A stretch of 42,502 nt of DNA from the NCBI GenBank assembly GCA_043820105.1, contig JBDREC010000049.1, positions 62,001-104,502 on the forward strand, written 5' to 3'. Below the pieces are notes generated by a model. That model was not told where the DNA came from and ran no database searches. It saw only the letters and a list, made by a program, of their open reading frames with translations. Shown here in pieces: positions 1-36,925 of the stretch. The translations under genes were made by a program, and so were the position numbers. Numbering within the stretch: the stretch's first letter is position 1; every line of letters begins with the position of its first letter. This DNA comes from Pseudomonadota bacterium (GTDB lineage: Bacteria > Bdellovibrionota_F > JAHFAK01 > JBDREC01).

Positions 1-18
1 GGTAGTTGAGGAGATTAA

Positions 19-942: not shown

Positions 943-970
943 TTTTGATTTAAAATTTAGTTACTTTTTC

Positions 971-1000
971 TTGACACTTTTTGAAAAAAATAGATATTCA
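971..1000 (+). promoter_or_regulatory. Probable sigma70 promoter of tRNA-His
   Basis: TTGACA at 971-976, GATATT-like -10 at about 993-998, just upstream of the tRNA. Confidence 0.55.
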
Positions 1001-1013
1001 ACACACAAAATAT

Positions 1014-1088
1014 GGTGGGTGTAGCTCAGCTGGTTAGAGCATCAGATTGTGGTTCTGAGGGCCGGGGGTTCGAATCCCCTCACTCACC
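1014..1088 (+). tRNA. tRNA-His(GTG), CCA not encoded
   Basis: G-1 (1014) pairs with C1088; acceptor GTGGGTG/CACTCAC; anticodon arm TCAGA-TT GTG GT-TCTGA; T-loop GGTTCGAATCC; followed by TT rather than CCA. Confidence 0.97.
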
Positions 1089-1090
1089 TT

Positions 1091-1136
1091 ATAAAACAAA
1101 AGCCCTGAAGTGGAAACTTTAGGGCTTTTGTTTTAT
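1091..1136. terminator. Intrinsic, probably bidirectional terminator
   Basis: ATAAAACAAAAGCCCT...AGGGCTTTTGTTTTAT perfect 16-bp inverted repeat with extension. Confidence 0.85.
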
Positions 1137-1183
1137 CGTTCAATACTAAAAACCCAAACTCAATACTTCCCTTTCCTATTGAA

Positions 1184-1205
1184 CTTGATTTATAAACTCG
1201 ATCTA
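1184..1205 (+). repeat. CTNGRTCTA direct-repeat doublet (cassette A left end)
   Basis: CTTGATTTA (1184) and CTCGATCTA (1197), 13-bp period; nearly identical to 4344-4364. Confidence 0.65.
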
Positions 1206-1284
1206 AGATTTTGATTTTTATGTGTATTTTTTGAAAGTTATTATTTAAATTTGATAAATAGGCTGTATTTTAAAAAAATACTAT

Positions 1285-1719
1285 TTGGAAAAAGTCTTTA
1301 CGATTTTCAAATTATTTAGTATAGATTGTATTAGAGATGAAAATATTGCAAAAACAATTGTAAAGCTATTCAAAGAACATAATCGCATTTTAATTGTCTA
1401 TGGGGCAGGGCATTTAATTGAGCTGGATAGACTACTTGTTAAAATGCTTGCTAAACCGGTGCTTGAAGTTGCAAATCAATCTAAATTTAACCCAGTAAGT
1501 GATAAAGATTTTAGAAATAATAAAATACATAATAAGAACTACAAAAACAGTTTAATAATCCAAATAAAACAATCTAGCCTAGATATCTTCATCATAAAAA
1601 ACGAGAATAAATATTTTGTTAGGCACTATAAATACTATGATTTATTGGGAAAGAAACTCAATGAGTTTGAATTTGAATCGCTTCGAGAATTAAATGAGGA
1701 TTTGAAAAAGTGGTATTAA
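1285..1719 (+). pseudogene. Probable 5'-truncated TraB/GumN/ChaN-like fragment with unknown C-terminal part
   Basis: RDENIA...ILIVYGAGHL resembles the C-terminal motif of that fold; weak TTG start, N-terminal part missing. Confidence 0.45.
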
Positions 1720-1731
1720 TAAGCTAATTAT

Positions 1732-1818
1732 TTAAGCAGCTAACAATTCAAGCACCTTCCCAATTTCATTATAAACCTCATATCTCAAAAAGTTGCGATA
1801 TTCGTCAACAAGGGGACC
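1732..1818 (-). repeat. att-like scar 1, encodes start-less tail GPLVDEYRNFLRYEVYNEIGKVLELLAA*
   Basis: Shares the ATCTCAAAAAGTTGC core with 4245-4331, 5515-5601 and 15210-15299; open minus-strand frame to TAA. Confidence 0.85.
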
Positions 1819-1830
1819 TTTTTCGTGGTT

Positions 1831-1853
1831 CTAGGTCTAGTTGCTAGGTCTAG
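1831..1853 (+). repeat. Direct-repeat doublet (cassette B left end)
   Basis: CTAGGTCTAG at 1831 and 1844, 13-bp period. Confidence 0.6.
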
Positions 1854-1899
1854 AGCTTATTTCAAATACTTTTCATTATTATTTTAATTTATCTAGAAA

Positions 1900-3027
1900 T
1901 TAAAAAGTAATTTTATATTTTGTTTGAGGGCCTATTCCTAATTTTTGAATGAAAGATTGTTCAAGAAGAATGTTGATTGTATGAATTATTGTTCTTCTAG
2001 GAATACCCGTTGCTTTTTGAATATCATTGGTTGATAGGTTTATTTCAGGATTATCATTGAATGTATTATAAATTTTAAGTTGTGATTCTGTTAGTTTTTG
2101 TAGTTTAATAAATTTTTCATTATAAAAATCAATGTCAGATAGTACAGCTTGCTCAAACATTTTTATATAATATCTTAAAAGAAGTTCAATTTTATATTCT
2201 TTGGGATTTTGTTTAAATTTACCTTCAGAACACTTGCGCAAAATATAATAATATTCACTTTTTGTTTTTTCTATTTGTCTATCAACTGAAATGAATCTAA
2301 TTATTGTTGAAAGGTTTTTGTCAGTATTTTGCAAACAACCGAGAATAAATAAGGCTCTTGAAAGTCTTCCATTTCCATCCTGAAATGGATGAATTGCTAA
2401 AAATCTAAAAATGAATTCTACTAGTACGGTCAAAGCCCAAGGTTGCTCTTTGATTTCATTATTGTACCATGTAAATAAATCATTCATTGCTGAAACTGTT
2501 ATAGGTCCTGGATCTGCTGTTTTTAAAACTTCTGAAACAATTTTTCCATCAAGTCTTTCAACAACATTATTTGGGATAGTTTTATAATTTCCCAGATAAT
2601 ATGATGCTGGAGGATGGTATTGCAAAAGTTCTGAGTGCAATCCTCTTAAGTGATATTCTGATAATGGGAAAATATCTTTTGCCTGCGAAAAAATTATTTC
2701 TAAAACATTTCGAAGGCCAGCTACTTCCTGAATACTTCTTTCTTTGTCTTTTGAAAGCTTTTTTTTAATAAACGTGCTTTTATCTAAGTATGACGTTGTT
2801 TTAGAGTCGCCATTTAAAGTTTCATTAAGCCAATTAATTTCAGTATTTGTTAAAATTGCATTTTCAATTCTGGTGCTAGAACCTAAGGTGCTTATTTTTG
2901 CCATTTTATGAATATATTCTTTGCATTCAATATTCAAAAAATCTAGAAAAACAAGCTTTTGAGTAATTAACTCATTTAATTCCTTGAGTTTTTTGGTATC
3001 TTGATTTGATAAATTATATGAAAGCAT
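1900..3027 (-). CDS. Fic family protein (class II, C-terminal HTH)
   Basis: HPFQDGNGRLSR Fic motif; N-terminal STRIEN inhibitory motif; C-terminal wHTH-like segment (DIQKATGIPRRTI). Confidence 0.92.
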   Translation of the reverse strand: MLSYNLSNQDTKKLKELNELITQKLVFLDFLNIECKEYIHKMAKISTLGSSTRIENAILTNTEINWLNETLNGDSKTTSYLDKSTFIKKKLSKDKERSIQEVAGLRNVLEIIFSQAKDIFPLSEYHLRGLHSELLQYHPPASYYLGNYKTIPNNVVERLDGKIVSEVLKTADPGPITVSAMNDLFTWYNNEIKEQPWALTVLVEFIFRFLAIHPFQDGNGRLSRALFILGCLQNTDKNLSTIIRFISVDRQIEKTKSEYYYILRKCSEGKFKQNPKEYKIELLLRYYIKMFEQAVLSDIDFYNEKFIKLQKLTESQLKIYNTFNDNPEINLSTNDIQKATGIPRRTIIHTINILLEQSFIQKLGIGPQTKYKITF

Positions 3028-3041
3028 AGGATCAGTATATG

Positions 3042-3098
3042 TTATTGCGCATTAATGTGCAATAAAAAAAATAGCATATTGCACATTAATGCGCAGTA
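3042..3098. promoter_or_regulatory. Paired palindromic operators upstream of the Fic gene
   Basis: TTATTGCGCATTAATGTGCAATAA (3042-3065) and TATTGCACATTAATGCGCAGTA (3077-3098). Confidence 0.75.
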
Positions 3099-3304
3099 GA
3101 AATGTGATTGAGAAATATGTAAAAAATACAATGAGTTAGCTCGTTTCATTTTGCTCTGGTGCTACATGTCCAAAGCCAAAAACCCCAAAAGAGGCCCTTT
3201 ACTATATCCAAAAAATAATTTAAAACAATTGGTTAAGAGTTGTCTTGGTTCATTAGATAGAATTGATTAGAATACCAATTTGAAATTTCAAAAAGGAGAA
3301 ACAT

Positions 3305-3646
3305 TTGCTTTCCATTAAAATTAAAGTGATAAAAAATTATACATCGGCTTACCCTAATCCAATCAAAGTTAAATTAAATGAAATGGTTGAAATAAAGGAA
3401 AAAGAAACAGATTGGGAAGGATGGCTTTGGTGCAAAAATAAAAATGATATTGAAGGTTGGGTTCCAGAAAAAATAATAAAAAGAGAAGGCAATATTGGCA
3501 AGGTTTTAAGAGATTATGAAGCCACTGAACTAACTGTTGCAGCTGGCGAGGAATTAATGTTTTTAGAAGAAGAAAGTGGCTGGCTATTTTGTAAAAATTC
3601 CCAAAATCAAAAAGGCTGGGTGCCTGCTGAAAATACTGATTATTAG
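3305..3646 (+). CDS. Tandem SH3-domain protein
   Basis: Two GWxxC...GWVP SH3-like repeats, DYEATELTV; AGGAG RBS. Confidence 0.85.
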   Translation: MLSIKIKVIKNYTSAYPNPIKVKLNEMVEIKEKETDWEGWLWCKNKNDIEGWVPEKIIKREGNIGKVLRDYEATELTVAAGEELMFLEEESGWLFCKNSQNQKGWVPAENTDY

Positions 3647-3703
3647 CCACTTAAAGTGTAACTTTTTAATTAAGCTTTAAAAATATAAATTGGAGAAAGA
3701 ATC

Positions 3704-4129
3704 ATGGAGCCTTTAATTGACCATATTCAAATTACTGTTAAAAATCTTGAGAAAGCAGAAAAATTTTATGATTTATTTCTTCCCCTTCTTGGGTTTGATA
3801 TTATGAAAAAGGGGAAAGGTGAAGTTCCTGAACATGATTTTAAAGTTGTCGAATACTGTCATCCACGCTTATGTTTTGCAATTACATCACCAAGAAAAGC
3901 TTTTGCTGATGATGAAATACATAGAAGAAAACCAGGCTCACTTCATCATTTGGCCTTTAAAGCACAGTCAAGAGATGAAGTAGATAATGTATATAAAGAA
4001 CTTGTCAAAATTGGTGCTATAATTGTAACAGAGCCTAAAGAATACCCAGAATATACACCTCATGGATATTATGCTGTCTATTTTAAAGATATAGAAGGAA
4101 TTAAATATGAAATAGTACATGCACAATAA
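3704..4129 (+). CDS. VOC/glyoxalase family protein
   Basis: IDHIQITV, LHHLAF, YYAVYFKDIEGIKYEIV. Confidence 0.9.
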   Translation: MEPLIDHIQITVKNLEKAEKFYDLFLPLLGFDIMKKGKGEVPEHDFKVVEYCHPRLCFAITSPRKAFADDEIHRRKPGSLHHLAFKAQSRDEVDNVYKELVKIGAIIVTEPKEYPEYTPHGYYAVYFKDIEGIKYEIVHAQ

Positions 4130-4244
4130 TTTAATTATATTAGTTAAGGTTTCAGTAATTTATATTTTGACTGTTAAGTCAGTTCCAAAACCGTCCCCTC
4201 AGCCAATGCTTAAAACTTAATTACAATTTAGAAATAAAATTGGA

Positions 4245-4331
4245 TTAACTAGCCAATAATTCAACAACTTTCCCAATCTCACTATAAACCTCACATCTCA
4301 AAAAGTTGCAAAAGTCGTTTGCAGAGTGACC
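4245..4331 (-). repeat. att-like scar 2, encodes GHSANDFCNFLRCEVYSEIGKVVELLAS*
   Basis: Colinear and gap-free with scar 1 over 87 nt. Confidence 0.85.
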
Positions 4332-4343
4332 TTTTTTTATCCT

Positions 4344-4364
4344 CTTGATCTATAAACCGATCTA
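4344..4364 (+). repeat. Direct-repeat doublet (cassette C left end)
   Basis: CTTGATCTA and ACCGATCTA, 12-bp period. Confidence 0.65.
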
Positions 4365-4367
4365 AAT

Positions 4368-4471
4368 AAGTTATCATACAATATGGTAAATAATAACAGT
4401 AGTATGACAACTTTGTGTTTGACTTCAGTTGTCATACAAGGTATCATGATAGGCATATTGTATGATAACTT
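4368..4471 (+). promoter_or_regulatory. Sigma70 promoter embedded in four GTTRTCATAC operator half-sites
   Basis: Perfect 18-bp IR 4368-4385/4454-4471, perfect 11-bp IR 4402-4412/4427-4437; TTGACT (4419) N17 TATCAT (4442). Confidence 0.8.
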
Positions 4472-4483
4472 TTTGGAAGTTTT

Positions 4484-4804
4484 ATGGGTGTAATAAAATC
4501 GGTTTTAAAAGAAGAGCTTAATAATTATCTTAGTATGAAAAAAAATTACTAAAAGGAACTGAATAAACTACCAAAGGGAAGCTTAATTAAGAAAAAAGTG
4601 AAAGGTCATATCTATTATTATCTAACTTTTCGGGAAGATGGTAATATTAGGCAAATATATAAAGGGAAAACTATTTCTAAGGAAGAGATGAAAAAATACG
4701 AAGAAGCTAAAAAGCTTAGAAAAAAATATAGGATTCTATTATCTAAAGTCAAAAAGCAGATCAAATTTTTAAGGAGTACCTTGCGTGGACAAGAATCAGT
4801 TTAA
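4484..4804 (+). pseudogene. Small basic partner protein of the nucleotidyltransferase, with in-frame TAA at codon 23
   Basis: ATG 4484 is in frame with ORF 4598-4804: MGVIKSVLKEELNNYLSMKKNY*KELNKLPKGSLIKKKVKGHIYYYL; stop at 4550-4552. Confidence 0.75.
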
Positions 4805-5471
4805 TTTATGCAAAGAAGTTTTAATTCGCCTCGAGAACAAGGGTGTCTTAAAGCATGTAATATTAATAGGTAGTTGGTGTTTGCCATTTTATAAAGAGTA
4901 CCTTAAGTCAAATAAATATAATCCTTCTATTAGGACTAGGGATATGGATTTTCTTATTTCTTCTCCAAATAAAATAAAAACAAAGGTTGATATTCCAGAA
5001 ATGCTAAAAGATTTAGGATTTCTGGTTGATATAGGAGGGTCTAAGGGGGTTGTTAGGCTTCAACATCCAGATTTAATGATTGAATTTTTGGTGCCTGAAA
5101 AAGGAAAAGGTACAGACAAGCCATATCCATTACCAATGCTTGGAGTAAATGCTCAAACTATAAGATTTTTAAATTTATTAACTGAAAATACTATTACCAT
5201 TAAAATAAATACTGTAAACTTGATTTTGCCTCATCCTATTAATTGGGCCTTGCAAAAGCTTATAATTTATCAAAGAAGGGGAAGTAAGGATAAAGCTCAA
5301 AAAGATTTTGAAGCAGCGATTGGATTGTTGAAGGCTTTAATCACGAAAGGTGAATCTGAAAATATTATAAATATTTTCAAGTCACAGCCTTTAAGGTGGC
5401 AAAATAAGATAAGAAAAGGACTTGAAAAATCTGAAGAAAGTAAAGTTTTAAAGATATTTATGGAAGCATAA
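4785..5471 (+). CDS. Nucleotidyltransferase-fold protein (GSU2403-like)
   Basis: LIGSW...RTRDMDF Pol-beta-like motif, IEFLVP, QKLII...KAQKD. Confidence 0.8.
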   Translation: MDKNQFNLCKEVLIRLENKGVLKHVILIGSWCLPFYKEYLKSNKYNPSIRTRDMDFLISSPNKIKTKVDIPEMLKDLGFLVDIGGSKGVVRLQHPDLMIEFLVPEKGKGTDKPYPLPMLGVNAQTIRFLNLLTENTITIKINTVNLILPHPINWALQKLIIYQRRGSKDKAQKDFEAAIGLLKALITKGESENIINIFKSQPLRWQNKIRKGLEKSEESKVLKIFMEA

Positions 5472-5514
5472 TTGATGTTAAGCATAAATTTAAATTCAAT
5501 TTTAAATTCTTTGT

Positions 5515-5601
5515 CTAACTGGCTAATATCAAATCAATATTATTAACTTCTCTGAAAGAATTTAATCTCAAAAAGTTGCGATATTCGTCCACTAGGGGGC
5601 C
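5515..5601 (-). repeat. att-like scar 3, encodes GPLVDEYRNFLRLNSFREVNNIDLILAS*
   Basis: First 12 aa identical to scar 1 with only synonymous nucleotide changes. Confidence 0.85.
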
Positions 5602-5602
5602 T

Positions 5603-5646
5603 AAAAAATAAAGCCCTGAAACAAAAGTTTCAGGGCTTTATTTTTT
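5603..5646. terminator. Terminator hairpin homologous to the one after tRNA-His
   Basis: AAAAAATAAAGCCCTGAAAC-AAAA-GTTTCAGGGCTTTATTTTTT; shares AAAGCCCTGAA..AGGGCTTT with 1091-1136. Confidence 0.85.
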
Positions 5647-5656
5647 CCTCTACTTT

Positions 5657-5678
5657 CTCGATCTATTATCTCGATCTT
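5657..5678 (+). repeat. Direct-repeat doublet (cassette D left end)
   Basis: CTCGATCTA (5657) and CTCGATCTT (5670), 13-bp period. Confidence 0.65.
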
Positions 5679-5716
5679 GTTTTTCTTTGTAGCCTAGCTT
5701 CATATGATTGTTGATT

Positions 5717-6139
5717 TTATTTGATTAAATCTAATCTAAATAATCCCCTCTCTTTATGCAATTCAATGGGATTACATTTTCTTGTCATTTTTATAACTTC
5801 TTTGTTTGAAAAGAGCACTTCCCACTCTAAAAAACAATATCCCTTTTGTTTAGCATAGTTCAAACAGTGTAAAAACAGTTTATAACCTAAGCCTTTTCTA
5901 TAGTTCTGTTTTATATACAAGTCTTCTAAGAACAGGATAGGCTTTCCTTTAAAGCTAGAATATTTTGTATACAGGATTGCATAACCTATGTATTCCTCTT
6001 CAATTTTTACAAGAAAAGCTGCATGAAATTTATTAATATCCTTTTTTAAATTTTCTTTAACTTCGTCATTAATTTTCTGTTTCGTTAAATAGATTGAAAA
6101 TTCATCAACTAACTTTATTAATTCAGAAACATTTAACAC
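5717..6139 (-). pseudogene. GNAT acetyltransferase (SSAT-like), 5' end abutting or cut by an IS
   Basis: YSSFKGKPILFLEDLYIKQNYRKGLG; start codon lies at the putative IS end, native N-terminus appears lost. Confidence 0.7.
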
Positions 6140-7425
6140 CGATTTTCACAGTTAAGAAAAACGTCATAGTGGCACCCTAACTAGGCAGTCCAGTTAAACT
6201 CAATAGTTTTATTATCAAGCCAAGGAACTTTGAAAGGAGCTTGTAGTTTATTTACACCAAGCAGAATAGGAGTGTGGGCACGTTTCCTTATTTTTATTAT
6301 AAATTTATTGCCATCATAAACTACTTTACCCGGCATATCGATAAATTTTCTAAATATTGTTGGTGCAAGTTCTTTTTCAAAACGTCTTAAATCCTTTGCA
6401 AATATGTGATACAAAGTATCAGCTATCATTGTCCATAGAATATCAAAATGTATTCTTATCATTATTGGAGATGATAAAGCATTTAAATTAAAAAAAGCGA
6501 CCAGCTCTGATAATTTATTTTCAATTCTCCAGCGTTTTGCATAGACTTCTAATATATCCTTGATTGATAGTTTATTGTTGTTAGTAATTACATATGTTGG
6601 CTTCTTGCGACCATGATCCTTGATTGTAATTTGACGAAACTCATTGTGACACCCTGCTAACAGCACTTTTTCTTCATAAATGGAAACCTTTTTATATTTC
6701 CTTTTGGGAATATTAACAAATGCTTTCTGCCATTTCTTTTTTGCAATCCTTTGAGTCGATTCCAATAAAGATGCATTTCTTTTTCTTAAAGTAATGAATT
6801 TAACATGATCATCTGCAAGTTCATCTAATGTCCCATAGCTTGTAAACTTGCAGTCGAAAACAAGTGTTTCATTAACTTTTCTTTTCTTAATTTTCTTCCA
6901 AAAAGAAACAAATTTTTTGACCTCATTTGATTCTTCACTGCGTAAAATATCTGCTCTTGTATATAAAACAGCATTGCTTTTGCTATCCTGAGCAAAAACA
7001 GATGTTGCCCCTTTTAATGTTTTACCCCTTGAGCCACACCATATCTTTTCCATTTCTGATTCTTCACCATAATGAGGAATAGAATGAAAATCTAAATTGA
7101 TAAATTCACTATCATAAAATCTAGGATATTGCTTTTTTAATTGAGCTAAAATCTTTTCTTGTAAATTCATTAAGTCAGCTTCTGACATACGACATGAATA
7201 GGTGCCCATATAAGTAGATTTTGGCAAGACATTCAAAGATGCAAAAGTACCTAAACCTATTTCTTTATCAAATGCTCCGATATGGCTTAATCTTTTATTT
7301 CCAATCAGTTTGAGAAGTAGCATAGACAAACAGGCATTTATTGATCCAATTTCACTTGATTCAGGAAGCTTACATTTTTTTACAATATCCAAAATGCCTG
7401 ATTCTATAATATAAGGGAGGAATAT
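6139..7425 (-). mobile_element. Truncated IS with DDE transposase (IS4/IS1380-like); coding part 6181-7425 lacks its N-terminus
   Basis: DFHSIP, FDCKF, YAKRWRIENKL (YREK-like); frame extends to IFLPYIIESGILD then TAG at 7426-7428; putative end CCGATTTTCACAG at 6139. Confidence 0.8.
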
Positions 7426-7443
7426 CTATGACGAAGATAATTT
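7424..7443 (+). repeat. Single inverted copy of the 11439-11522 transposon-end repeat
   Basis: ATCTATGACGAAGATAATTT is the reverse complement of the AAAGTTACCTTCGTCATAGA-type units. Confidence 0.7.
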
Positions 7444-7591
7444 AATTTATTGACTTGCAGCTATTTGCTTATATTTAGTGGAGAATTTTGTTGAGGTACT
7501 AGGTTAAATAAACAGTTTATTGTTGTTTTATGGTTCAATACTGCGGAGTTTAGTAATGTTGTTTTTTAGCTAAGTGATCAAGAGTTTAGTG

Positions 7592-7828
7592 CTAGTGGCG
7601 ATAAGCTATATCAAACTTTTTTAAATTCTCAAGAGTTACAATACTGGAAACTTTTTTTCTAATGACATTAAACAAGTCTTCTATAGATCTAGATATTTCA
7701 TTTTGAGATTCTTTTTTCCATATATCAGAAAGTTTCTGGCCTGGATGACATACTTTAAAGAATGTTGCTCCTGCTTCTAAGCTTGCTTTTCTTTCAGAAT
7801 TAGCATCTCCAAAAACGAATATTTCAAA
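7592..7828 (-). pseudogene. 3' fragment of a HAD-family hydrolase
   Basis: Start-less frame EIFVFGDANSERKASLEAGATFFKV...RH* resembles the HAD motif IV region. Confidence 0.6.
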
Positions 7829-8002
7829 TTATAATCTCATAAACAGTTTTTCAGAATTTGTAATCCAGTTTCTGGAATCTGGAATTCGTTAATTATTAAA
7901 GCGATATATAAGCTCTTCATATTATTAGGATTGAAGGTATCGGTATAGTTCTTGCAGTAATCTATTTTTTTTATAGCAATTTATTAATAAAAGGAAACTA
8001 AC

Positions 8003-8644
8003 TTGAAATCAGAAAAGATTGAAATTGATATCGATTTTAGAGAAAGAAAAACAAATTTAATAGATATATTAAAAGAAAAATATAAATTTGATGTAAAAGA
8101 AAAGTTCTTAAAAATTGGAGATTATTGTATCGGAAATCGAATTATCATTGAAAGAAAGACCTGTAAAGATTTTATAGTATCTATAATTGATGGGCGACTT
8201 TTTAATCAAGCAAGTTTATTGAAAAATTCGAATCAGCTTTGTCTCTTTATTATAGAAGGAGAAGGGCTTTATAATACAGGTTTAGAGATGAGCAATAATT
8301 CAATAAATGGTGCATTAATCAGCTTATCTTTATTCTGGCAAATTCCAATATTGTTTACTAAGGATATTTATGAAACAGCATTATTTTTAAATTTAATTGC
8401 TTCCCAATATTATGTTGAAGTAAATGACATATCCTTTCGACCTGGAAGAAAGCCTAAGGGTAAGCGAAAAAGACAATTATATATTTTACAGGGCTTGCCA
8501 AATATTGGTCCTAAGTATGCTAATAAATTATTGGATCATTTTGGTTCTGTTGAACAGGTTTTTACGGCATCTGTTGATGATTTAAAGAGTATTGACGGAC
8601 TTGGGAAAAAAAGAGCAGAAAAGATTAAGGAGATTATTTCATGA
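8003..8644 (+). CDS. ERCC4/XPF-family nuclease with C-terminal helix-hairpin-helix
   Basis: IDFRE, GDY...ERKTCKDF catalytic motif, LPNIGPK and IDGLGKKRA HhH motifs. Confidence 0.9.
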   Translation: MKSEKIEIDIDFRERKTNLIDILKEKYKFDVKEKFLKIGDYCIGNRIIIERKTCKDFIVSIIDGRLFNQASLLKNSNQLCLFIIEGEGLYNTGLEMSNNSINGALISLSLFWQIPILFTKDIYETALFLNLIASQYYVEVNDISFRPGRKPKGKRKRQLYILQGLPNIGPKYANKLLDHFGSVEQVFTASVDDLKSIDGLGKKRAEKIKEIIS

Positions 8645-10563
8645 TAGAGAGCAAACTTAAAGAACATTTCGGATTAAATAATTTTTTACAAGGTCAAAAA
8701 GAAGTAATTGAATTGATTGTAAAAGGTGAATCAGCTGGAGCGATATTTCCAACTGGAGCAGGTAAATCCTTGTGCTATCAATTGTCAGCAGTGCTTTTAC
8801 CAGGAATAACCTTGGTTGTTTCACCACTTTTATCCTTAATGAAAGATCAAATTGAATTTTTACAACGCAAGAATATTAAGGCAGCAAAACTTGACTCAAC
8901 ACTAACAAAGGAAGAGTATAATAAAGTTTTAAATGATGCTAAGACGGGTCAAATTAAAATATTAATTATATCTGTTGAGCGATTTAAAAATGAACGGTTT
9001 CGAATTCAACTTAAACAAATGCAAATTTCATTGTTGGTTGTGGATGAAGCTCATTGCATTTCAGAATGGGGACATAACTTTCGTCCAGATTATTTAAAGA
9101 TTCCATATTATAAATCAGAATATAACATTGAACAAATATTACTCTTAACAGCTACTGCTACACCAAAAGTAACGACTGATATGTGTGATAAATTTAAAAT
9201 CCCAATGGAACATATTGTTATAACAGGTTTTTATCGAGAAAATTTATTTCTAAAAGTTAGAGCTATAGATGCTGATGAAAAAGAAAGCTTAGTGCTAGAT
9301 ATAATTAGTAAAAATCCAGATGACTCGACAATTGTATATGTAACATTGCAAAAGACAGCTGAGGAAGTAGCACATTTTTTGATAAATCAGGGATATAAAG
9401 CTTTGCCATATCATGCAGGTATGGATAATGCAGAACGAGAATTAGTTCAAAATAAATTTATGGATGGAAGTGCTTCAATAATAGTAGCAACAATTGCATT
9501 TGGAATGGGAATAGATAAAAAAGATATAAGAAAAGTTGTTCATTATGATTTACCTAAGTCCATTGAAAACTATAGTCAAGAAATTGGTAGAGCTGGACGA
9601 GATGGCTTGCATGCCCAATGTGAAGTTTTAGCAAATTTAGATAATGTAACTGTTCTTGAAAATTTTATTTATGGGGATACTCCAGAAAAAGTATCTATTG
9701 AAAAATTTGTAAAAAAGATAAAAAACTGTGAATCAGATTTATTAGAAATAAAAGAATATTCATTATCTTATGAGCTTAATATTAGAATGCTTCCTCTTAA
9801 AACATTATTAGTTTATTTAGAAATAAAAAATATCATTAAATCTAAATTTACATATTTTGAAGATTATGAATTTAAATATTTAAAGGAATCTTCTGACATT
9901 GTTAAGGAATTTATTGGAGAAAGAAAAAGGTTTGTAAAAAACATCTTTGAGCATTCTGAAACAGCAAAAATATGGACAAAACCTGATTTTAATAAAATTA
10001 ATAAAAGTTATAAAGTAGACAGAGAAAGGATCATTAAAGCTCTTGAATATTTTGATGAAAAAGGATGGATTGAACTTAGAGCTAGAAAATCAGTTGATGT
10101 TTATGAGATTCTTAATAAAGGATTTGAGGTTTGCAAGTTAAGCAATAGTCTTTTTAATATATTCAAAGAAAAAGAAGAAAATGAAATAAATAGAATTTCT
10201 AATATGATTCAATTTTTTGAGTCAGATGCATGTTTAAGCAATTCTCTTTCGTTATACTTTGGTGAAACAATAAATAAAAGATGCAATCATTGTTCCTTCT
10301 GCGAAAATGGTAAGATTCGATTGCAATATTCTAGCGAATTGAAACCATTGTTAGATATTTATTTTAAAGATTTGATTCGTGATTTGTTAAAAGAAACGCA
10401 GAATTATAGTTTGTCAAATCTTACGATAACAAAGTTTTTATGTGGAATTAATACACCTTTTATTAGTAGAATGAAATTAAGTAAAATTAATGGATATGGA
10501 AGTTTGAAAAACTACCCATTCCTAGAGGTAAAGAGTTTAGTAGAGAAAGAATTCCATAGATAA
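8641..10563 (+). CDS. recQ: RecQ family ATP-dependent DNA helicase (no HRDC domain evident)
   Basis: PTGAGKSLCYQ, DEAHCISEWGHNFRPDY, ATIAFGMGIDK, QEIGRAGRDG, Zn-binding C..CNHCSFC; ATGA overlap with the ERCC4 gene. Confidence 0.93.
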   Translation: MIESKLKEHFGLNNFLQGQKEVIELIVKGESAGAIFPTGAGKSLCYQLSAVLLPGITLVVSPLLSLMKDQIEFLQRKNIKAAKLDSTLTKEEYNKVLNDAKTGQIKILIISVERFKNERFRIQLKQMQISLLVVDEAHCISEWGHNFRPDYLKIPYYKSEYNIEQILLLTATATPKVTTDMCDKFKIPMEHIVITGFYRENLFLKVRAIDADEKESLVLDIISKNPDDSTIVYVTLQKTAEEVAHFLINQGYKALPYHAGMDNAERELVQNKFMDGSASIIVATIAFGMGIDKKDIRKVVHYDLPKSIENYSQEIGRAGRDGLHAQCEVLANLDNVTVLENFIYGDTPEKVSIEKFVKKIKNCESDLLEIKEYSLSYELNIRMLPLKTLLVYLEIKNIIKSKFTYFEDYEFKYLKESSDIVKEFIGERKRFVKNIFEHSETAKIWTKPDFNKINKSYKVDRERIIKALEYFDEKGWIELRARKSVDVYEILNKGFEVCKLSNSLFNIFKEKEENEINRISNMIQFFESDACLSNSLSLYFGETINKRCNHCSFCENGKIRLQYSSELKPLLDIYFKDLIRDLLKETQNYSLSNLTITKFLCGINTPFISRMKLSKINGYGSLKNYPFLEVKSLVEKEFHR

Positions 10564-10600
10564 AAATTGCTATTGTGTTAATTAATTAAACAAGAAAGAA

Positions 10601-11359
10601 TTAATCAAATTTTTCTTGATCTTCGATTTCATCCTTTCCGTTTTTATCATAATCAATAATTTCAATTTTATCTGAATAATACCATTCAAACATGTCTCGT
10701 CTAAGCTTTGCCATACATGTTTGGCCTTGTTCTTTTCTTTTTAGATTGTAAAATATTACACCTTCAGCGAAAACTTTTTCGTCTAATCCTTTTTTTGATG
10801 CAATTTTTGTGAACAACCTTGAATGGAGCCAATCTTTAAACCATGAACTCCAATTATCAAAATTTCGTTCATGATCATGAAATGACTTGTATCGAAGATG
10901 GTTAATTGCTTTTTCAAATGGATACCATAAGTGTTGATCAAGTTTATACGGATTGCCTTGAACTTTTGGACCTATGAGTTCCCCTGCTTGTTCACCATTT
11001 AATTCTACATATCCTTTATCTATTGATTGAAAAATGCCCTCTATAATAAAAGTTTTGCCTTTCATTATTTGAAGTGGGTCAATAACATTAAGTCTGTTTT
11101 GACAAGCAATAAGTCTTCCATTTTCTGTTAGAATTTTAACATTTGTTCCATCAAGTTTTTCAACAGCAAAAGTGTCAGGATCTTCAAAAACCCATTCATA
11201 ACCAGGATTAATTTTGTTAACTGCTAGATAAACCTCTGGACTTCGAAGTTTTAATTGACTTCCATGTTTTTTTAAATGGTCTCTATTTACTTTAAATGTT
11301 TGCCGTATAAATGGGCATTGAAGTTTGGGAAAATCTGATAATCTTGCTTGTTGTTCCAT
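10601..11359 (-). CDS. RNA ligase family protein (RLIG1/DUF5565-like)
   Basis: EKLDGTN motif I, GELIGPKVQGNPY, EGVIF, MAKLRRDMF; ATG 11359 preceded by GGAGG. Confidence 0.75.
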   Translation of the reverse strand: MEQQARLSDFPKLQCPFIRQTFKVNRDHLKKHGSQLKLRSPEVYLAVNKINPGYEWVFEDPDTFAVEKLDGTNVKILTENGRLIACQNRLNVIDPLQIMKGKTFIIEGIFQSIDKGYVELNGEQAGELIGPKVQGNPYKLDQHLWYPFEKAINHLRYKSFHDHERNFDNWSSWFKDWLHSRLFTKIASKKGLDEKVFAEGVIFYNLKRKEQGQTCMAKLRRDMFEWYYSDKIEIIDYDKNGKDEIEDQEKFD

Positions 11360-11438
11360 GGTATTTAACCTCCAAACGATTAAGGTGCTAAAAAAATTAT
11401 ACATTATCAAGGTTTTTAAAATTTGCAACAAATCATAA

Positions 11439-11522
11439 AGAAAAGTTGTACCATCGTCATTAGAAAAGTTACCTTCGTCATAGAAAGTCTAGCATAGAAA
11501 GTCTCCTTCGTCATAGATGACA
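11439..11522 (+). mobile_element. Probable transposon end with 3-4 tandem ~20-bp transposase-binding repeats, ending TGACA
   Basis: AAAGTTGTACCATCGTCATTAGA, AAAGTTACCTTCGTCATAGA, AAGTCTAGCATAGA, AAGTCTCCTTCGTCATAGA then TGACA (5'-TGT on minus strand). Confidence 0.65.
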
Positions 11523-11648
11523 GATCTATGTTTAGGATAATATCTTTTTTTTAGTAAAACTAGTTCTGTTTATAAAAAACAAAATATGGTTATTTCAATT
11601 TTAGGATTCTAGGGGAAATGAGATTACATTTAGGATAATAGCTTTTAT

Positions 11649-12176
11649 TTAAAATTCTTCCTGATCATTTTCATCAAGAATTATTCTTCCCAGTTCATCT
11701 TTATGAACTTTGGTGATACCAGGATTGGTTTTTTCTATATCATCAAATAATTTATTTAATTTTTTCATACTATTGGTTAAAATTCTATTTTTTAAAATTA
11801 TCGTTTTATATTCTAAAGCTCGTTTAACAGCTATTCTTATTTCATCTTTTTCCCAAGGTTTAAGCATAAACATATATAAAACAGCCCTGTTAACGGCATC
11901 AACTGCCATTTGAAGGTCAGCGTTTCCTGTTAATAAAATGCTGGGAATATCTGGATAATTTTTTGATACAATTTCTAGAAAATCAATCCCTGACATTCAT
12001 GGCATTTTAAAATCTGAGATTATTAGATCTATCTTTGGGTTATTATCAATAATTTCTAAGGCTTTTTCACCACTTTCAGCTTTAATAATTGAATAATTCT
12101 CATCATTTAATGTTCTTTCTAAAGTTTTTAAAACATATTCTTCATCATCTACCAATAATATTTTATAATTTGGCAT
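11649..12176 (-). pseudogene. Receiver-domain response regulator with in-frame TGA
   Basis: ATG 12176 MPNYKILLVDDE...IISDFKMP*MSG; TGA at 11997-11999 replaces Gly of MPGMSG. Confidence 0.85.
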
Positions 12177-12190
12177 ATTTTTTCCTTTCT

Positions 12191-14224
12191 TTAAAGAGGT
12201 AATGTAATAGTAAAACTTGTTCCCTGACCTTCTTGGCTTTCTACAATTATTTCTCCACCATGCTTTTTAATAATTTCAAAACTTATACTCATACCAAGAC
12301 CTGTGCCTTTACCTGTTTCTTTCGTTGTGAAAAATGGTTCAAAAATTTTATCAATGTTTTCCTTTTTAATGCCTGATCCAGTGTCCTTAATTAAAATCAT
12401 TACATTCTTATTGTTTGCCCAGGTTTTAATATTAATTGTGCCTTTGTCTGTTATAGATTGAGATGCATTAACTAGAAGATTTAAAAAGACTTGGCCTAGT
12501 TGCTGAGGGTTGCAGTTAATATTTGGAAAATTGCCATAATCCTTTTTAAGTTCAGCTTTATATTTTATTTCGTTCCAACAGATTTTTAGAACGGATTCTA
12601 AGATGTCATTTATATTAGCTTCAGACATTATATTCTCATCTTTTCTTGAAAAAGTATTTAATTCTTTTATTATTTTAGAAATCCTTTCAACGCCTTCCAT
12701 AGACTCATTAATCATATCATCCAAATCTACTAGAATGTCTTTAAAATCAATTTTATGGTAATGTTTTATAATTTCTTCTTGAATTTTATCAATTTCTATT
12801 TTGTGTTTATTTTCAAATGAATCTTTTAATTCATTATATTTTAACATTATTTTAAAAATACTTTGTGTGTGTTCTTTTAAAATTGAAATATTATTTTTAA
12901 CAAATGCCAAGGGATTATTAATTTCATGGGCTACACCTGAAGCTAATTGTCCAATTGCTGCTAGTTTTTCAGATTGGAGCAGTTTTGACTGAGTCTCTTT
13001 TATTTTATCATCAGCCAACTTCTTCTTGATAGTTATTGCTAGAACATTTGATAAAGCATTAAGAAGATCAACTTCTCTTTTATTATATTCATGCCCCTCT
13101 TTAAGATAGAGATTTAAAACACCTAACACATCATCTTCTATTTTTATTGGCATACAATAATGGCCATGATTAACGATTCCATCATAAGTAATGTCATGAC
13201 TACTATCTAAATTGCTTCGATAAACCAGTTCTCTTGATTTAGCTGCTCTACCACACAAACAAGTACCAAAATCAACTTCTTTACATACAGTTAATAAAGC
13301 ATTGTTTAAATTAGATTGGGCAATCATTTTTAATTTGTTTTCATTTGGTTTTAAAAGAAAAATAGCACCTTTTTCTTCAACTGAAAACCAGTGTGTATTT
13401 ATTATTTTTTCAAGAATCTTTTGCAAAGTTTCCTTTAAAGAAAGAGTGTCAATTGAAATCAGGAGAATCTGATTTATTAGATCTCCAGCCAGATTGCTCC
13501 TTTCAAGGGTATCCTGTGTATCCTTGATATGAGTAACCATTGAATTAAAGGCTCCAGCTAACTCGCCAATCTCATCTTTCGATCTTATTTTTATCATATG
13601 ATCAAATTTACCCTGTCCAGTTTTTTTAACAGAGATTAACAATTCACGTAATGGATTTGTTATTGCACTTGAAAAAAAGAATGCAGCTATAATACCTAAA
13701 ATAAAAATCAAAGCCACAATAAGGATTAAAGTAGTTGTTAAATAAAAAATATTTTTATAAATATTTTCTTGAGAGAATCCAATGTGAATTTGCCCTAAAT
13801 TCCCATCAGATATTAATGCAATAATGTGAAGTGCTCTTTCATTATTAGCTAATATTTCTTGGCTATAAGGGGATTTTTTTTCTTTGTCGAATTGAATATT
13901 GCCCAAATCGGCAGGGAAACCATCAGTAAAAGTATGTGAAATAATTTTATCTTTTTCATTTTTAATAAAAATATATTCTATTTCAGGATCAGATTCTTTA
14001 ATATCAATAATATCCATTTTTAATTTAACGCGATTTTCTGTTAAAATTGGATTAACAACCATCTCGGATGCATGAGTAGTAATAAATTCGCATTTTTCTA
14101 AAAGTTCTATTTTATAATATTTAAGGAGAGTTGTGTGAACAAAAATGATCACTGCTGTTCCCAGGATTGTAACAAGCAATGCAGCCCCTAGTAGGATTTT
14201 TATTCTTAAATTAATATTTTTCAT
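12191..14224 (-). CDS. Sensor histidine kinase (2 TM, HAMP, GAF, HisKA, HATPase)
   Basis: DEIGELA HAMP, CLCG GAF, AHEINNP H-box, NLLVNA, DTGSG, FFTTK, GTGLG. Confidence 0.93.
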   Translation of the reverse strand: MKNINLRIKILLGAALLVTILGTAVIIFVHTTLLKYYKIELLEKCEFITTHASEMVVNPILTENRVKLKMDIIDIKESDPEIEYIFIKNEKDKIISHTFTDGFPADLGNIQFDKEKKSPYSQEILANNERALHIIALISDGNLGQIHIGFSQENIYKNIFYLTTTLILIVALIFILGIIAAFFFSSAITNPLRELLISVKKTGQGKFDHMIKIRSKDEIGELAGAFNSMVTHIKDTQDTLERSNLAGDLINQILLISIDTLSLKETLQKILEKIINTHWFSVEEKGAIFLLKPNENKLKMIAQSNLNNALLTVCKEVDFGTCLCGRAAKSRELVYRSNLDSSHDITYDGIVNHGHYCMPIKIEDDVLGVLNLYLKEGHEYNKREVDLLNALSNVLAITIKKKLADDKIKETQSKLLQSEKLAAIGQLASGVAHEINNPLAFVKNNISILKEHTQSIFKIMLKYNELKDSFENKHKIEIDKIQEEIIKHYHKIDFKDILVDLDDMINESMEGVERISKIIKELNTFSRKDENIMSEANINDILESVLKICWNEIKYKAELKKDYGNFPNINCNPQQLGQVFLNLLVNASQSITDKGTINIKTWANNKNVMILIKDTGSGIKKENIDKIFEPFFTTKETGKGTGLGMSISFEIIKKHGGEIIVESQEGQGTSFTITLPL

Positions 14225-14226
14225 AT

Positions 14227-15180
14227 CTAATGAGAACTTTCATTTTTTTGCATAATAAATGATTCCATTTCACGAATCGAATTGTAAGCTGAATCTTCAA
14301 TAATAACAAATTTATCAATAAGCATATTATCTAATATCTTTTTTCCATTTATATCGTTATGCATATTTAAAAATAAATCTTTTAACTTGTTTTTTAAGTT
14401 TTTATCAAAGTTTGGACGAATTATAACAGGTGGGATACCATATGGATCTGATTTTTTGATAATCCTTGTTTTTGATGTGTATTTAGGATCTTTCCGAGAA
14501 GCATATTCCCAAATAAGGCTATCTACAGCTGCAGCATCAATAATCCCTTCAGCTACAGCTTGAATCGATTTATCGTGAGCATAAGTATAGGTGAATTCTT
14601 TGAAATATGATTTTGGTGTCTGGCCCATTTTAGCCAACATATAAGTTGGAACTAATTTGCCCGTATTAGACATAGGATCGGTGAAGGCAAAACTTTTACC
14701 TTTAAGTTCACTAAAATTTTTTATCAGACTATTTTTATTAACTATTATATAAGAGTAATAAACAGTTTCTCCAAAAGCTTGGGGAGCAACAAGTAGCTCC
14801 ATCCCAAATTCGTCATGCCCGTCAACATATGGTTTTCCGCAGACAAATGCCAAATCAATTTGTTTATTTAAAACGAGATTATTAACATCCTTATAATTTT
14901 CTCTTTCTATAAGTTTTACAGGACGTTCAAGTTTTTCCCCGATATAATCCACCAACTGTCGATAAAACGCATATCCTTGTTTCGGTGTTATCATTGATCC
15001 AATGGCAATTTTAATCGGTTCTAATTTATTAAAAGGTTTGCTCTCTTGTTTTATGATTTCTCTTTTACTTAGGTCAATTTTCTTAACATTTTTATTTTTA
15101 TCACAATTTGTCAGTAATAAAATAAATAACATTAATTGAAAAATAAGATGCTTTTTATTTAGACTCATATTAATACCCAT
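14227..15180 (-). CDS. PhnD-fold oxyanion-binding lipoprotein, AioX/ArrT-like
   Basis: LTNC lipobox, DLAFVCGKPYV, FAFTDPMSNTG, AHDKSI; directly upstream of a kinase with no ABC permease or ATPase. Confidence 0.8.
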   Translation of the reverse strand: MGINMSLNKKHLIFQLMLFILLLTNCDKNKNVKKIDLSKREIIKQESKPFNKLEPIKIAIGSMITPKQGYAFYRQLVDYIGEKLERPVKLIERENYKDVNNLVLNKQIDLAFVCGKPYVDGHDEFGMELLVAPQAFGETVYYSYIIVNKNSLIKNFSELKGKSFAFTDPMSNTGKLVPTYMLAKMGQTPKSYFKEFTYTYAHDKSIQAVAEGIIDAAAVDSLIWEYASRKDPKYTSKTRIIKKSDPYGIPPVIIRPNFDKNLKNKLKDLFLNMHNDINGKKILDNMLIDKFVIIEDSAYNSIREMESFIMQKNESSH

Positions 15181-15209
15181 TTAATTTATTATTTAATAAA
15201 GTATAAATA

Positions 15210-15299
15210 TTATGAAATATTTAGATAATATTCAATCAATTTTGTGTTAATGTGAGGTTCACATCTTAAAAAGTTGCGAAACTTGTCCACGGAGTCACC
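15210..15299 (-). repeat. att-like scar 4, encodes GDSVDKFRNFLRCEPHINTKLIEYYLNIS*
   Basis: ACATCTTAAAAAGTTGCGA core; terminal TCCACGGAGTCACC matches tRNA-His end TCCCCTCACTCACC at 10 of 14 positions. Confidence 0.8.
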
Positions 15300-15367
15300 C
15301 TTGCTAGTCCAGTGGATTAAAAAAAAATATCCCCTTATCTAATACTAGCTAGGGGGATTATATTTTT

Positions 15368-16060
15368 TCAAATTAATCTAAATATATAAATAAGTGAATA
15401 ATAAATGCCTACTAAGATAAATACAATGCCTGTGATTTTTCTTGCCCAAATTTCAAACAAGGATATTTTATTAAAAATCTTACTGATTGATTTTGAACCA
15501 AAAGCTATTAATACTGCAAATACAATCACAGGAATGGAAGTGCCAATTCCATAAAATAGAGGCAGCAAAAGTCTTGAGTTTTCTTTAATAGCAAGGGGTA
15601 TTAAACCGCCAAAGAATAGTCCAGCTGATACGGGACAAAAGGATAGAGCGAATAAAATTCCAATAAAAAATGATCCTGATATTCCATGTTTTTTAATTTT
15701 ATTTTGGAAAGTGCTTGAGATATTTAATCCAGGAAGAGATAATTTTATTAATTCTAAAAGAATCATTCCAGCAATAATCAGAATAGGTCCTAAAAGCATA
15801 TTCATATATGTTTGTAAAAATTGGGCTAATTGTGAAGATGACATTATGGATGTAACAATTACGGTGCAAATTAAAATATAAGTAAGTGACCTGCCAATTG
15901 AATAGAAAATCCCAGAAAGAAGAACTATCAGTTGATTCTTAAAGTCTTTGCTTATGTATGTGATGGCTGCGATATTTGTGGCTAATGGGCATGGGCTTAT
16001 TGATGTTAAAATGCCAAGCCATAGAGCATAAAATATTGCAATATTTGTTAAAGTTGTCAT
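15368..16060 (-). CDS. arsG: ArsG-like membrane protein (CcdA/DsbD-type)
   Basis: SISPCPLATN and SFCPVSA Cys pair; gene context. Confidence 0.75.
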   Translation of the reverse strand: MTTLTNIAIFYALWLGILTSISPCPLATNIAAITYISKDFKNQLIVLLSGIFYSIGRSLTYILICTVIVTSIMSSSQLAQFLQTYMNMLLGPILIIAGMILLELIKLSLPGLNISSTFQNKIKKHGISGSFFIGILFALSFCPVSAGLFFGGLIPLAIKENSRLLLPLFYGIGTSIPVIVFAVLIAFGSKSISKIFNKISLFEIWARKITGIVFILVGIYYSLIYIFRLI

Positions 16061-16683
16061 TTAATTAAAAACTTTTCTGTTTCATTTTTAATGTATTTTA
16101 CAAACTCTTCTTTATTTCGTACAAACTCCCAAATGCGATCAAGATTTTCCCATTTAAGTTCTTTATCATCTTTCAATTTTGATAATACAAAAGATTTTGT
16201 ATTAAGTTTGTAATCTTGAATGAAGTGTTTGTTTTCAAGTTCATCTACATTTAATGTTGAAAATATGAGCTTTCCATCTGCTATATCTTTTGAAAAATAA
16301 GTTGTGATAGTTTCATTGATATACTTTTCCATTGTTTTGCAAGTTTTGCACCTAATTGTAGTGTGAAAGTAATATGCTTTAACGCCAGTAAAAGATATTT
16401 TATCTATCATTAGTTCATTTTTAGTTTCTTTGAAAGCTTCACTTGGGATCACTTTTACTTCTTTAGTTTCTTTGAAAGCTTCACTTTGGATGATTTTTAC
16501 TTCTTTAGTTTCTTTTAAAGCTTCACTTGGGATCATTTTTACTTCTTTAGTTTCTTTTAAGACTTCATTTGGGATCACTTTCACTTCAATTTCATTAGAT
16601 GTTCTTTCTTTTAAAATAATAAAGATCAGGCTAAGTCCAACAAAAAGAAGTAAAAATATTGTAATAATATTTTTAATAGTCAC
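16057..16683 (-). CDS. arsF: ArsF-like CxxC protein with a repeat linker
   Basis: YYFHTTIRCKTCKTME, N-terminal TM anchor. Confidence 0.72.
   Translation of the reverse strand: MTIKNIITIFLLLFVGLSLIFIILKERTSNEIEVKVIPNEVLKETKEVKMIPSEALKETKEVKIIQSEAFKETKEVKVIPSEAFKETKNELMIDKISFTGVKAYYFHTTIRCKTCKTMEKYINETITTYFSKDIADGKLIFSTLNVDELENKHFIQDYKLNTKSFVLSKLKDDKELKWENLDRIWEFVRNKEEFVKYIKNETEKFLIK
16420..16587. repeat. 4 x 42-bp in-frame tandem repeat inside arsF
   Basis: Unit TTTAGTTTCTTTGAAAGCTTCACTTGGGATCACTTTTACTTC, encoding EVKVIPSEAFKETK. Confidence 0.93.
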
Positions 16684-16705
16684 TTTTTCTCCTAGATTGA
16701 ATATT

Positions 16706-16939
16706 TTATTTTAATAATTCCTCAATTTCGCTAACAGTTAATACTTTTCCAGATGTTTTTATAACATCATTAATTGCTAAAGCAGGTGTTATCATTACAC
16801 CAAAATTTGTGATTTCAGTAATATCTTTTATCTTTATAATTTCATATTCTATTCCAATATTTTTGGCTGCTTCTTCAGCATTTTTAGCCAAATTCTCACA
16901 TTTTGAGCAACCTGTGCCTAGTATTTGTATTTTTTTCAT
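16706..16939 (-). CDS. arsE: Small thioredoxin-like protein (MTH895/ArsE family)
   Basis: ILGTGCSKC, GVMITPAL. Confidence 0.8.
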   Translation of the reverse strand: MKKIQILGTGCSKCENLAKNAEEAAKNIGIEYEIIKIKDITEITNFGVMITPALAINDVIKTSGKVLTVSEIEELLK

Positions 16940-16963
16940 TATGTTTTCCTTTCTTTAAAAATA

Positions 16964-35880: not shown

Positions 35881-35881
35881 A

Positions 35882-36889: not shown

Positions 36890-36925
36890 TATTAGAATTC
36901 CTTACAATGATTTATAATTTTTATA

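Follow-up and report, generated by a model that had tools for sequence, protein, structure and literature searches.

What do four start-less frames, repeated in a row beside a tRNA-His gene, represent: the severed ends of a protein gene, the arms of integrative elements, or both? The window analysed here is a 42,502-nt stretch (positions 62001-104502 of contig JBDREC010000049.1, hereafter C49) of an assembly of 3.81 Mb in 113 contigs with 32% G+C. The host is an uncultured groundwater bacterium from a barely sampled phylum, four genomes of which, the host's included, were compared. Our results favour, on balance, the reading that the four repeats (modules s1 to s4) are distal-arm junctions (attR-type, P-arm, of attachment or att sites) of four related, now recombinase-less integrative elements stacked at tRNA-His. 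The frame that the modules share is likely, though not proven, to have a coding history, as judged from its pattern of substitution.

The module is about 90 nt long and is present as four diverged copies on one strand, all within 14.2 kb beginning at the 3' end of tRNA-His. As direct repeats, the copies occupy 1732-1823, 4245-4336, 5515-5606 and about 15210-15302, the first starting 643 nt past the tRNA gene. They are the sole four matches in the 3.8-Mb assembly (nhmmer E values from 1e-16 to 3e-21, the next match having an E value of 2), and s4 was recovered at E 1e-5 by profiles built from s1 to s3 only, with DNA and protein profiles alike. Pairwise identity ranges from 57 to 78% and has the form of a mosaic. 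In the head of the module, s1 and s3 agree at 19 of 22 positions; in the tail, s1 and s2 agree at 39 of 48, the other pairs sharing 18-26 of 48; and in the core, a 16-nt block is identical at 14-15 of its 16 positions in every pair. The flanks after the modules follow a third pattern, in which the flank of s2 matches that of the tRNA at about 21 of 24 positions. Such mosaic parts are expected of recombining att arms. The near-identical block reads ATCTYAAAAAGTTGC on the plus strand, carries an ATCTNA motif also present in the repeat pairs described below, and is probably a protein-binding (arm-type) site. As a putative IHF-type site, it agrees with the consensus WATCAANNNNTTR at 8 of 9 specified positions.

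The sequences next to the modules connect the array to the tRNA gene. On the plus strand, the likeness between modules ends at ...RCC↓T, where the arrow marks the junction. The sequence past the s3 junction runs into a hairpin (T') that is 74% identical to the hairpin (T) found right after the ...CACC↓T end of tRNA-His, and T and T' are the only two hairpins of the genome with that stem. A common terminator motif shared by both sites was considered as the cause of this likeness and rejected: the corresponding 11-mer occurs 16 times, while the hairpin is formed at these two sites only, and the homology of T and T' therefore stands. Exact pairs of direct repeats start 12-15 nt past the junctions of s1 and s2 and about 11 nt past the hairpin of s3, and this repeat-pair arm is thus present after three of the four modules. 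Of 3000 random windows of 250 nt, approximately 3-5% contain repeats that reach the length seen at s1 and s3 (9-10 nt or more). As tRNA-His and the modules each precede the same kind of arm, tRNA-His occupies the position of a module.

The same layout recurs at other tRNA genes of this genome. Downstream of tRNA-Pro (contig C97) and tRNA-Met (C9), a hairpin precedes a direct-repeat pair, after which comes a tyrosine-integrase gene or fragment in convergent orientation. At tRNA-Leu (C6) and tRNA-Arg (C67), the repeat pair and the convergent integrase gene are likewise present, but no clear hairpin was seen. These integrase genes or fragments end 228 (C6), 76 (C67), 85 (C97) and 97 nt (C9) short of the tRNAs, and the intact tRNA-linked integrases are not split. 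The Phage_integrase model has 11 matches elsewhere in the genome, nine of them above the family cut-off, and none is linked to the modules. Direct repeats of the tRNA 3' end of 11 nt or more were found neither at these four tRNA-integrase loci nor at tRNA-Phe, so that crossover over a short identity may be usual in this genome. Downstream of 10 of the 42 tRNAs there are exact repeats that are at least 10 nt long and have a period of 11-14, compared with 96 of 3000 random windows (3.2%). Genome-wide, many tRNAs have short direct or tandem repeats (with a period of 11-14, or of 6-7 and abutting) within about 15-120 nt downstream, and many tRNAs may therefore carry element arms or remnants. The repeat motifs were also tried as locators of the far ends of other tRNA-linked elements and were not informative.

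Regarding the frame itself, each module holds on its minus strand 28-29 open codons that start within one codon of the junction and end at a shared stop. The four frames read exactly as in the original prediction, which had been made from the letters of the sequence and had described them as severed C-termini: an in-frame ATG is absent from all four copies, and every TTG or GTG codon of the frame lies in its interior. The gapless alignment then proposed holds for s1, s2 and s3 over 28 amino acids (aa), while s4 is one codon longer and requires one gap. The three ssrA-like ends are those of s1 (...LLAA), s2 (...LLAS) and s3 (...ILAS); s4 ends in ...LNIS, and the canonical LAA is found in one copy of four. 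The three differences between s1 and s3 in their first 12 codons (GGT/GGC, CTT/CTA and GTT/GTG) are indeed all synonymous, as had been noticed.

Among the six possible frames, only this one is free of internal stops in all four copies. In a permutation test, the observed substitutions of each pair were re-placed at random within the head, core and tail segments, p referring to the absence of a stop together with a BLOSUM62 score at least as high as that observed. The p values were 0.0000-0.0003 for s1-s3, 0.0003-0.0006 for s3-s4, 0.005-0.006 for s1-s4, 0.005-0.014 for s2-s4, 0.015-0.03 for s2-s3 and 0.04-0.08 for s1-s2; as the module pairs share sequences, these tests are not independent. When the test was run in all six frames, the same frame had the lowest p in all six pairs and the exact antisense frame came second in four of them. 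The coding frame of the original prediction is thus backed by a protein-type substitution signal of moderate strength. Since it has neither a start codon nor an upstream body, the frame is not expressed as a protein in the present copies.

These observations would be explained by tandem accretion, in which elements were inserted successively at the 3' end of tRNA-His and each newcomer displaced the older ones outward, s4 then being the oldest module and belonging to the outermost element (coordinates in the table). Each element would begin with a proximal arm, formed by a repeat pair with or without a hairpin, and end with the module as its distal arm. On the plus strand, tRNA-His would accordingly be followed by hairpin, repeat pair, cargo and s1 (element E0); by repeat pair, cargo and s2 (E1); by repeat pair, cargo and s3 (E2); by hairpin, repeat pair, cargo and s4 (E3); and finally by the original flank with its terminator. 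As each internal module is followed by the repeat pair of the next element, the internal junctions would be attP-like hybrids that combine the P arm of the preceding element with the P' arm of its successor. Past the outermost junction, s4↓CTTGC..., lie a bidirectional terminator and a gene in convergent orientation, and this could be the original neighbourhood of the tRNA. Crossover would have occurred at ...RCC↓T, presumably through a tyrosine integrase, and the 28-29-codon frame would be what is left of a gene 3' end that the distal arm had brought along.

Table. Features of the tRNA-His array. Positions are those of the window; arrows mark junctions, and roles in the array are as proposed in the text.
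Feature	Position	Strand	Description
tRNA-His (GTG)	1014-1089	+	ARAGORN; Rfam tRNA 66 bits; proposed attB, the array beginning at its 3' end (...CACC↓T)
Element E0	1090-1818		Hairpin and repeat pair 0 proximal; s1 distal
Hairpin T, terminator-like	1093-1134		First part of E0 proximal arm; similar to 5604-5645
Direct-repeat pair 0	1183-1206	+	CTTGATTTAT / CTCGATCTAA, period 13; similar to the pair after s2
Module s1	1732-1821	-	Reads KGPLVDEYRNFLRYEVYNEIGKVLELLAA, then stop; distal arm of E0; junction ...GACC↓T between 1818 and 1819; stop-to-stop open reading frame (ORF) 1735-1830 (32 aa)
Element E1	1819-4331		Cargo (Pfam): Fic protein 1900-3027 (-), SH3 protein 3305-3646 (+), glyoxalase-family protein 3704-4129 (+)
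Direct-repeat pair 1	1831-1853	+	CTAGGTCTAG twice (1831, 1844), period 13; 12 nt past s1 junction; E1 proximal arm
Module s2	4245-4334	-	Reads KGHSANDFCNFLRCEVYSEIGKVVELLAS, then stop; distal arm of E1; stop-to-stop ORF 4248-4349 (34 aa)
Element E2	4332-5601		Cargo (Pfam): 68-aa ORF 4598-4804 (+), NTP_transf_8 protein 4785-5471 (+)
Direct-repeat pair 2	4347-4364	+	GATCTA twice (4347, 4359), period 12; E2 proximal arm
Module s3	5515-5604	-	Reads LGPLVDEYRNFLRLNSFREVNNIDLILAS, then stop; distal arm of E2; stop-to-stop ORF 5518-5637 (40 aa)
Element E3 (9.7 kb)	5602-15299		Cargo: GNAT, DDE transposase, ERCC4 nuclease and RecQ-type helicase; RNA-ligase-like protein, split response-regulator-like ORF pair, histidine kinase, PhnD-like binding protein
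Hairpin T'	5604-5645		Directly past s3 junction; homologue of the tRNA-His terminator hairpin
Direct-repeat pair 3	5656-5677	+	TCTCGATCT twice (5656, 5669), period 13; about 11 nt past hairpin T'; E3 proximal arm
Module s4	15210-15302	-	Reads KGDSVDKFRNFLRCEPHINTKLIEYYLNIS, then stop; most diverged; junction ...CACC↓C between 15299 and 15300; stop-to-stop ORF 15213-15338 (42 aa)
Proposed original tRNA-His flank (B')	15303-15367		19 nt, then a bidirectional terminator hairpin common to the convergent membrane-protein gene 15368-16060 (-)

Several points weigh against this accretion reading. No integrase, excisionase or other recombinase is encoded within positions 1-17000, so that the agent of integration can only be inferred. 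Module s4 lacks a clear repeat pair, and the pair at tRNA-His is imperfect (7/10) and lies 94 nt from the tRNA instead of 12 nt. The 3' end of tRNA-His is not repeated over 11 nt or more, identity at the proposed crossover amounts only to about AGGT/RCC↓T, and the position of the crossover is not proven. Synteny did not confirm the proposed original flank: in the other three genomes of the phylum, the trxB homologue has no tRNA nearby (within about 1.5 kb) and the protein of 15368-16060 has no match, these relatives being too few and too distant for synteny. The metagenomic contigs, short and at a depth of about 2-3x, showed no population sign of excision or of variant arrays. Finally, the coding signal of the module frame is moderate, with a weak excess of third-position changes (added up over the pairwise comparisons, 38 changes fall on the first, 37 on the second and 55 on the third position of the codon), and, if this signal is real, the accretion model does not name the gene to which the tail belonged.

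The original prediction gave a different answer to this last point, placing attP inside a gene of the element, probably that of a large serine recombinase. More generally, the crossover in intact relatives would lie about 28 codons before the stop of an attP-spanning gene (recombinase or repressor), integration would swap the tail, possibly a degron, for a two-codon end in the tRNA antisense, and the four tails would be fossils at the far ends of decayed elements. We consider this unlikely. The repeats do behave as site-specific recombination junctions beside tRNA-His, and, as the frame starts at the junction and runs to a shared stop, the geometry fits a gene spanning attP. The substitution signal specific to this frame also agrees with it, and so does the length of the tail, since 28-29 aa is near the 33 aa severed from gp33 of mycobacteriophage BPs in the published description of that phage (PMC4557955). 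A transfer-messenger RNA (tmRNA) gene is present in the assembly and encodes the tag ADENLALAA, whose last residues are shared by s1; the other three tails do not end in LAA. Moreover, the tRNA-His antisense reads G-E-stop-G-D-S-N in the register of the modules, as predicted, giving a stop after two codons, but its residue matches with the tails are at chance level (p 0.44-0.996 against shuffles).

The body of such a gene would be expected in the DNA upstream of the tails, and there this reading meets its main difficulty. Upstream of all four tails and next to the tRNA the DNA is non-coding, every frame stopping within 6-33 codons upstream of s1-s4, and an ATG upstream of a module is found in the s2 flank only, 15 codons away. 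As the non-coding arms are homologous between the five junctions (repeat pair with or without hairpin), the common ancestor of the four elements must already have been without a body there. A frameshift in the junctional A-run hiding a longer gene was considered and rejected, as the open stretches upstream comprise only 13, 33 and 30 codons in differing registers and uncover no gene. A stop-free stretch of 63 codons was observed on the minus strand at 1090-1285, passing through the repeat pair and hairpin and ending at a TGA in the tRNA-His antisense; no start-bearing ORF is listed there, its register differs from that of the modules, and it is probably due to chance. Regarding the recombinase proposed to run into a tRNA antisense, the genome contains no recombinase gene that has such a tail or reaches a tRNA: the tRNA-adjacent ones are of the tyrosine type and stop 76-228 nt short. 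Its single serine recombinase lies on a contig without tRNA (C100) and has a C-terminus unlike the tails.

Homology searches with the tails gave no relative, at a protein C-terminus or elsewhere, an outcome that the original prediction had itself set against the recombinase, although in databases this large a query of 29 aa is of low power and the result is an absence of evidence. In a profile search of 1.84 billion representatives, two proteins were retrieved at E up to 0.001, neither at a C-terminus; both are internally repetitive sequences aligned in 3-4 stretches and correspond to chance. Word-indexed searches confirmed none of 3373 candidates among proteins of 75-2000 aa (E up to 10) and none of 105 among those of 17-74 aa (E up to 1), and tblastn of the tails against phage and plasmid records retrieved nothing at E up to 10. 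None of five peptides matched Pfam, and the single match in PHROGs (E 0.38) is to no integrase family. Exact-pattern DNA scans found one unrelated match, in gene-like sequence, among genome contigs and 23 loci among metagenome contigs, none of them module-like, while a peptide-pattern scan of viral contigs with a tblastn check gave 76 pattern matches and no confirmed one. In 41 sampled genomes, the matches outside the host genome had E values of 0.2-0.9 only, three of them inside long ORFs; the modules are absent from the three other genomes of the whole phylum, and a related tail ends no ORF of the window or of the host genome.

A possible fifth and sixth copy were also examined. Two near-identical, start-less frames of 28 codons at C49:433-522 (+) and C76:19945-20034 (-), ending in ...MAA and ...IAA, were retrieved by tblastn at E 0.2 and rejected as module copies, as the four-copy protein profile matched them at E 14-19 amid noise and the DNA profile not at all. 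They belong to a two-copy repeat of about 150 nt, with the frame WRQVHAYRTFLLQNEFVEFNDIKRL[MI]AA and a stop followed by a shared terminator. This repeat has a sharp 5' boundary and is module-like in form, its homology to the modules being unsupported. On C76, the repeat is located about 3 kb away from tRNA-Phe, among AbiE-like, GNAT and RhuM-like ORFs (names taken from unscanned translations).

To the idea that the open frame is accidental, the module being purely a DNA element that was never translated, we give still less weight than to a gene spanning attP. The module would in that case serve as the P arm of attP and hold sites for arm-binding and DNA-bending proteins. In its most conserved block, with 14-15 of 16 nt identical in every pair, even the synonymous positions are kept, and the block carries the ATCTNA motif of the repeat pairs; the putative IHF-type match noted above, the lack of a start codon, homologue and upstream body and the weak codon-position bias also agree with this idea. 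Nevertheless, it would leave to accident that one frame of six stays open in four copies that are only 57-78% identical, that this frame alone shows more conservative replacements than the position-shuffled null, and that the s1 and s3 heads differ by synonymous changes only.

Very improbable, finally, is the idea that the elements normally enter the 3' end of a host protein gene and supply its last 28 codons, the gene having been lost or tRNA-His being a secondary site. Surrogate 3' ends of this kind are known for ICESt1 at fda and for staphylococcal cassette chromosome (SCC) elements at rlmH, and they would explain coding constraint without a start codon and the sharp 5' boundary; here, the position upstream of s4, the outermost module, is taken by a terminator hairpin and not by a gene body, none of the ORFs in the window or genome has a related tail at its end, and the repeat-pair arm adjoins the tRNA as in the tRNA-linked integrase loci of this genome, which suggests the tRNA as the target. 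Tandem arrays with one such repeat per element have been described for the accretion of cis-mobilizable elements (CIMEs) and integrative and mobilizable elements in the relevant part of a review (PMC5704250). Two further readings were rejected: a structured RNA, as neither strand has a conserved structure (consensus folds of -0.4 and -1.7 kcal/mol) and no Rfam family falls on the modules, and displaced tRNA halves, as local alignment of the modules with tRNA-His is no better than with shuffles (p values given above) and no tRNA model matches them at E up to 10.

Returning to the accretion model, the cargo of the proposed elements (SoFic-like Fic protein, NTP_transf_8 pair, GNAT, transposase of an insertion sequence (IS), ERCC4 nuclease and RecQ-type helicase) is typical of islands and looks defence-like, as judged from family matches. 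The Fic protein at 1900-3027 (-) matches the SoFic model (E 1.4e-26), and the RecQ-type helicase beside the ERCC4 nuclease, at 8003-10563 (+), matches the PADLOC models PsyrT (E 1e-104) and DpdF (E 2e-123). The two ORFs of E2 resemble a toxin-antitoxin pair. The RNA-ligase-like, two-component and PhnD-like names in E3 come from the translations, without a scan of a family library. Downstream of the tails lie convergent cargo genes or the PhnD-like gene, and no integrase gene adjoins them. Outside the array, at 16406-16615, four to five tandem 42-nt repeats were observed inside the ORF 16057-16683 (-), whose protein has repeated 14-aa units of the KETKEVKxIPSEAx type. Three adjacent ORFs at 35564-38020 (-), of 105, 339 and 364 codons, have similar C-termini (...LQ-F-FL+-LDNS-F...) and look like tandem paralogues.

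The organism was traced at low depth to groundwater metagenomes (Logan contigs), 6-17% of the sampled words being found in four sequencing runs. Over the region, the contigs of these four runs represent the organism at about 2-3x in two runs, as short pieces only and without reliable joints; the joints that were listed have sides of 21-32 nt under 95% likeness and were disregarded. One contig of 151 nt (run X2) spans 5555-5705 with no differences and covers the junction of s3 with hairpin T'. In two anchialine metagenome runs, the best-represented part of the region is the DDE_Tnp_1 transposase gene of E3, at 6181-7392 (-): contigs span 6225-7416 with few differences and the remainder of the array is barely present, which suggests that this IS circulates more widely than the host.

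For a phylum that has hardly been sampled, the array offers a clean, dissectable instance of an island growing by accretion at a tRNA gene. Its arm architecture is compact, as one side of the junction has a repeat pair at a distance of 12 nt and the other side an arm of 90 nt, and, as it recurs at other tRNAs, it could delimit islands in this genome even though the tRNA direct repeats are too short to see. If the tails were the severed ends of an attP-spanning gene, the range of integration-dependent switches would be widened beyond the phages of actinobacteria, to which all cases of integration-dependent immunity found in our literature search belong, and four natural tail variants would be available as degron candidates.

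Among known systems, the integron attC arrays are similar in that the present segments, of 0.7-9.7 kb, are promoter-less, carry cargo only, have one orientation and each end in a diverged repeat of similar length. In contrast to attC sites, the modules have no conserved imperfect palindrome (R''-L''/L'-R') on either strand, and the cargo genes lie on both strands, several per segment, in an array that starts at a tRNA with no integron integrase nearby. The recombination site of the SSV-type 'suicidal' integrases lies inside the recombinase ORF, so that the integrated element has a piece of that gene at either end (PMC7253208). As far as that account describes them, these systems are archaeal and both fragments are recognisable integrase pseudogenes, whereas the organism studied here is a bacterium, as its tmRNA gene indicates, and the fragment matches no integrase family. 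Integration-dependent immunity is described for mycobacteriophage BPs and for Clusters G, I, N and P (PMC4557955). According to the sections of that work on BPs, integration likewise severs a tail of about 30 codons from a gene and leaves it at one prophage end, the BPs tail being ssrA-tagged. In BPs, however, the attP core directly adjoins the body of the repressor gene, and the tail is succeeded by the integrase gene; here body and integrase are both lacking, the flank is non-coding and three of four tails are without LAA.

The array can also be compared with ICESt1-type accretion, for which a review describes, in the part concerned with these arrays, tandem elements and decayed CIMEs at one attachment site, the newcomer integrating into the att site of the resident (PMC5704250). 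The present repeat, of about 90 nt and 57-78% identity, differs from the short identical direct repeat of those arrays, and so do the target, a tRNA 3' end with almost no shared identity, and the lack of an active element, integrase or observed excision. Nevertheless, as in ICESt1-type arrays, tandem elements lie at one site, each with an att-repeat copy as its boundary and most of them without integration genes, and the arrangement of the tRNA-His array matches the tandem accretion and decayed cis-mobilizable elements set out in that part of the review (PMC5704250).

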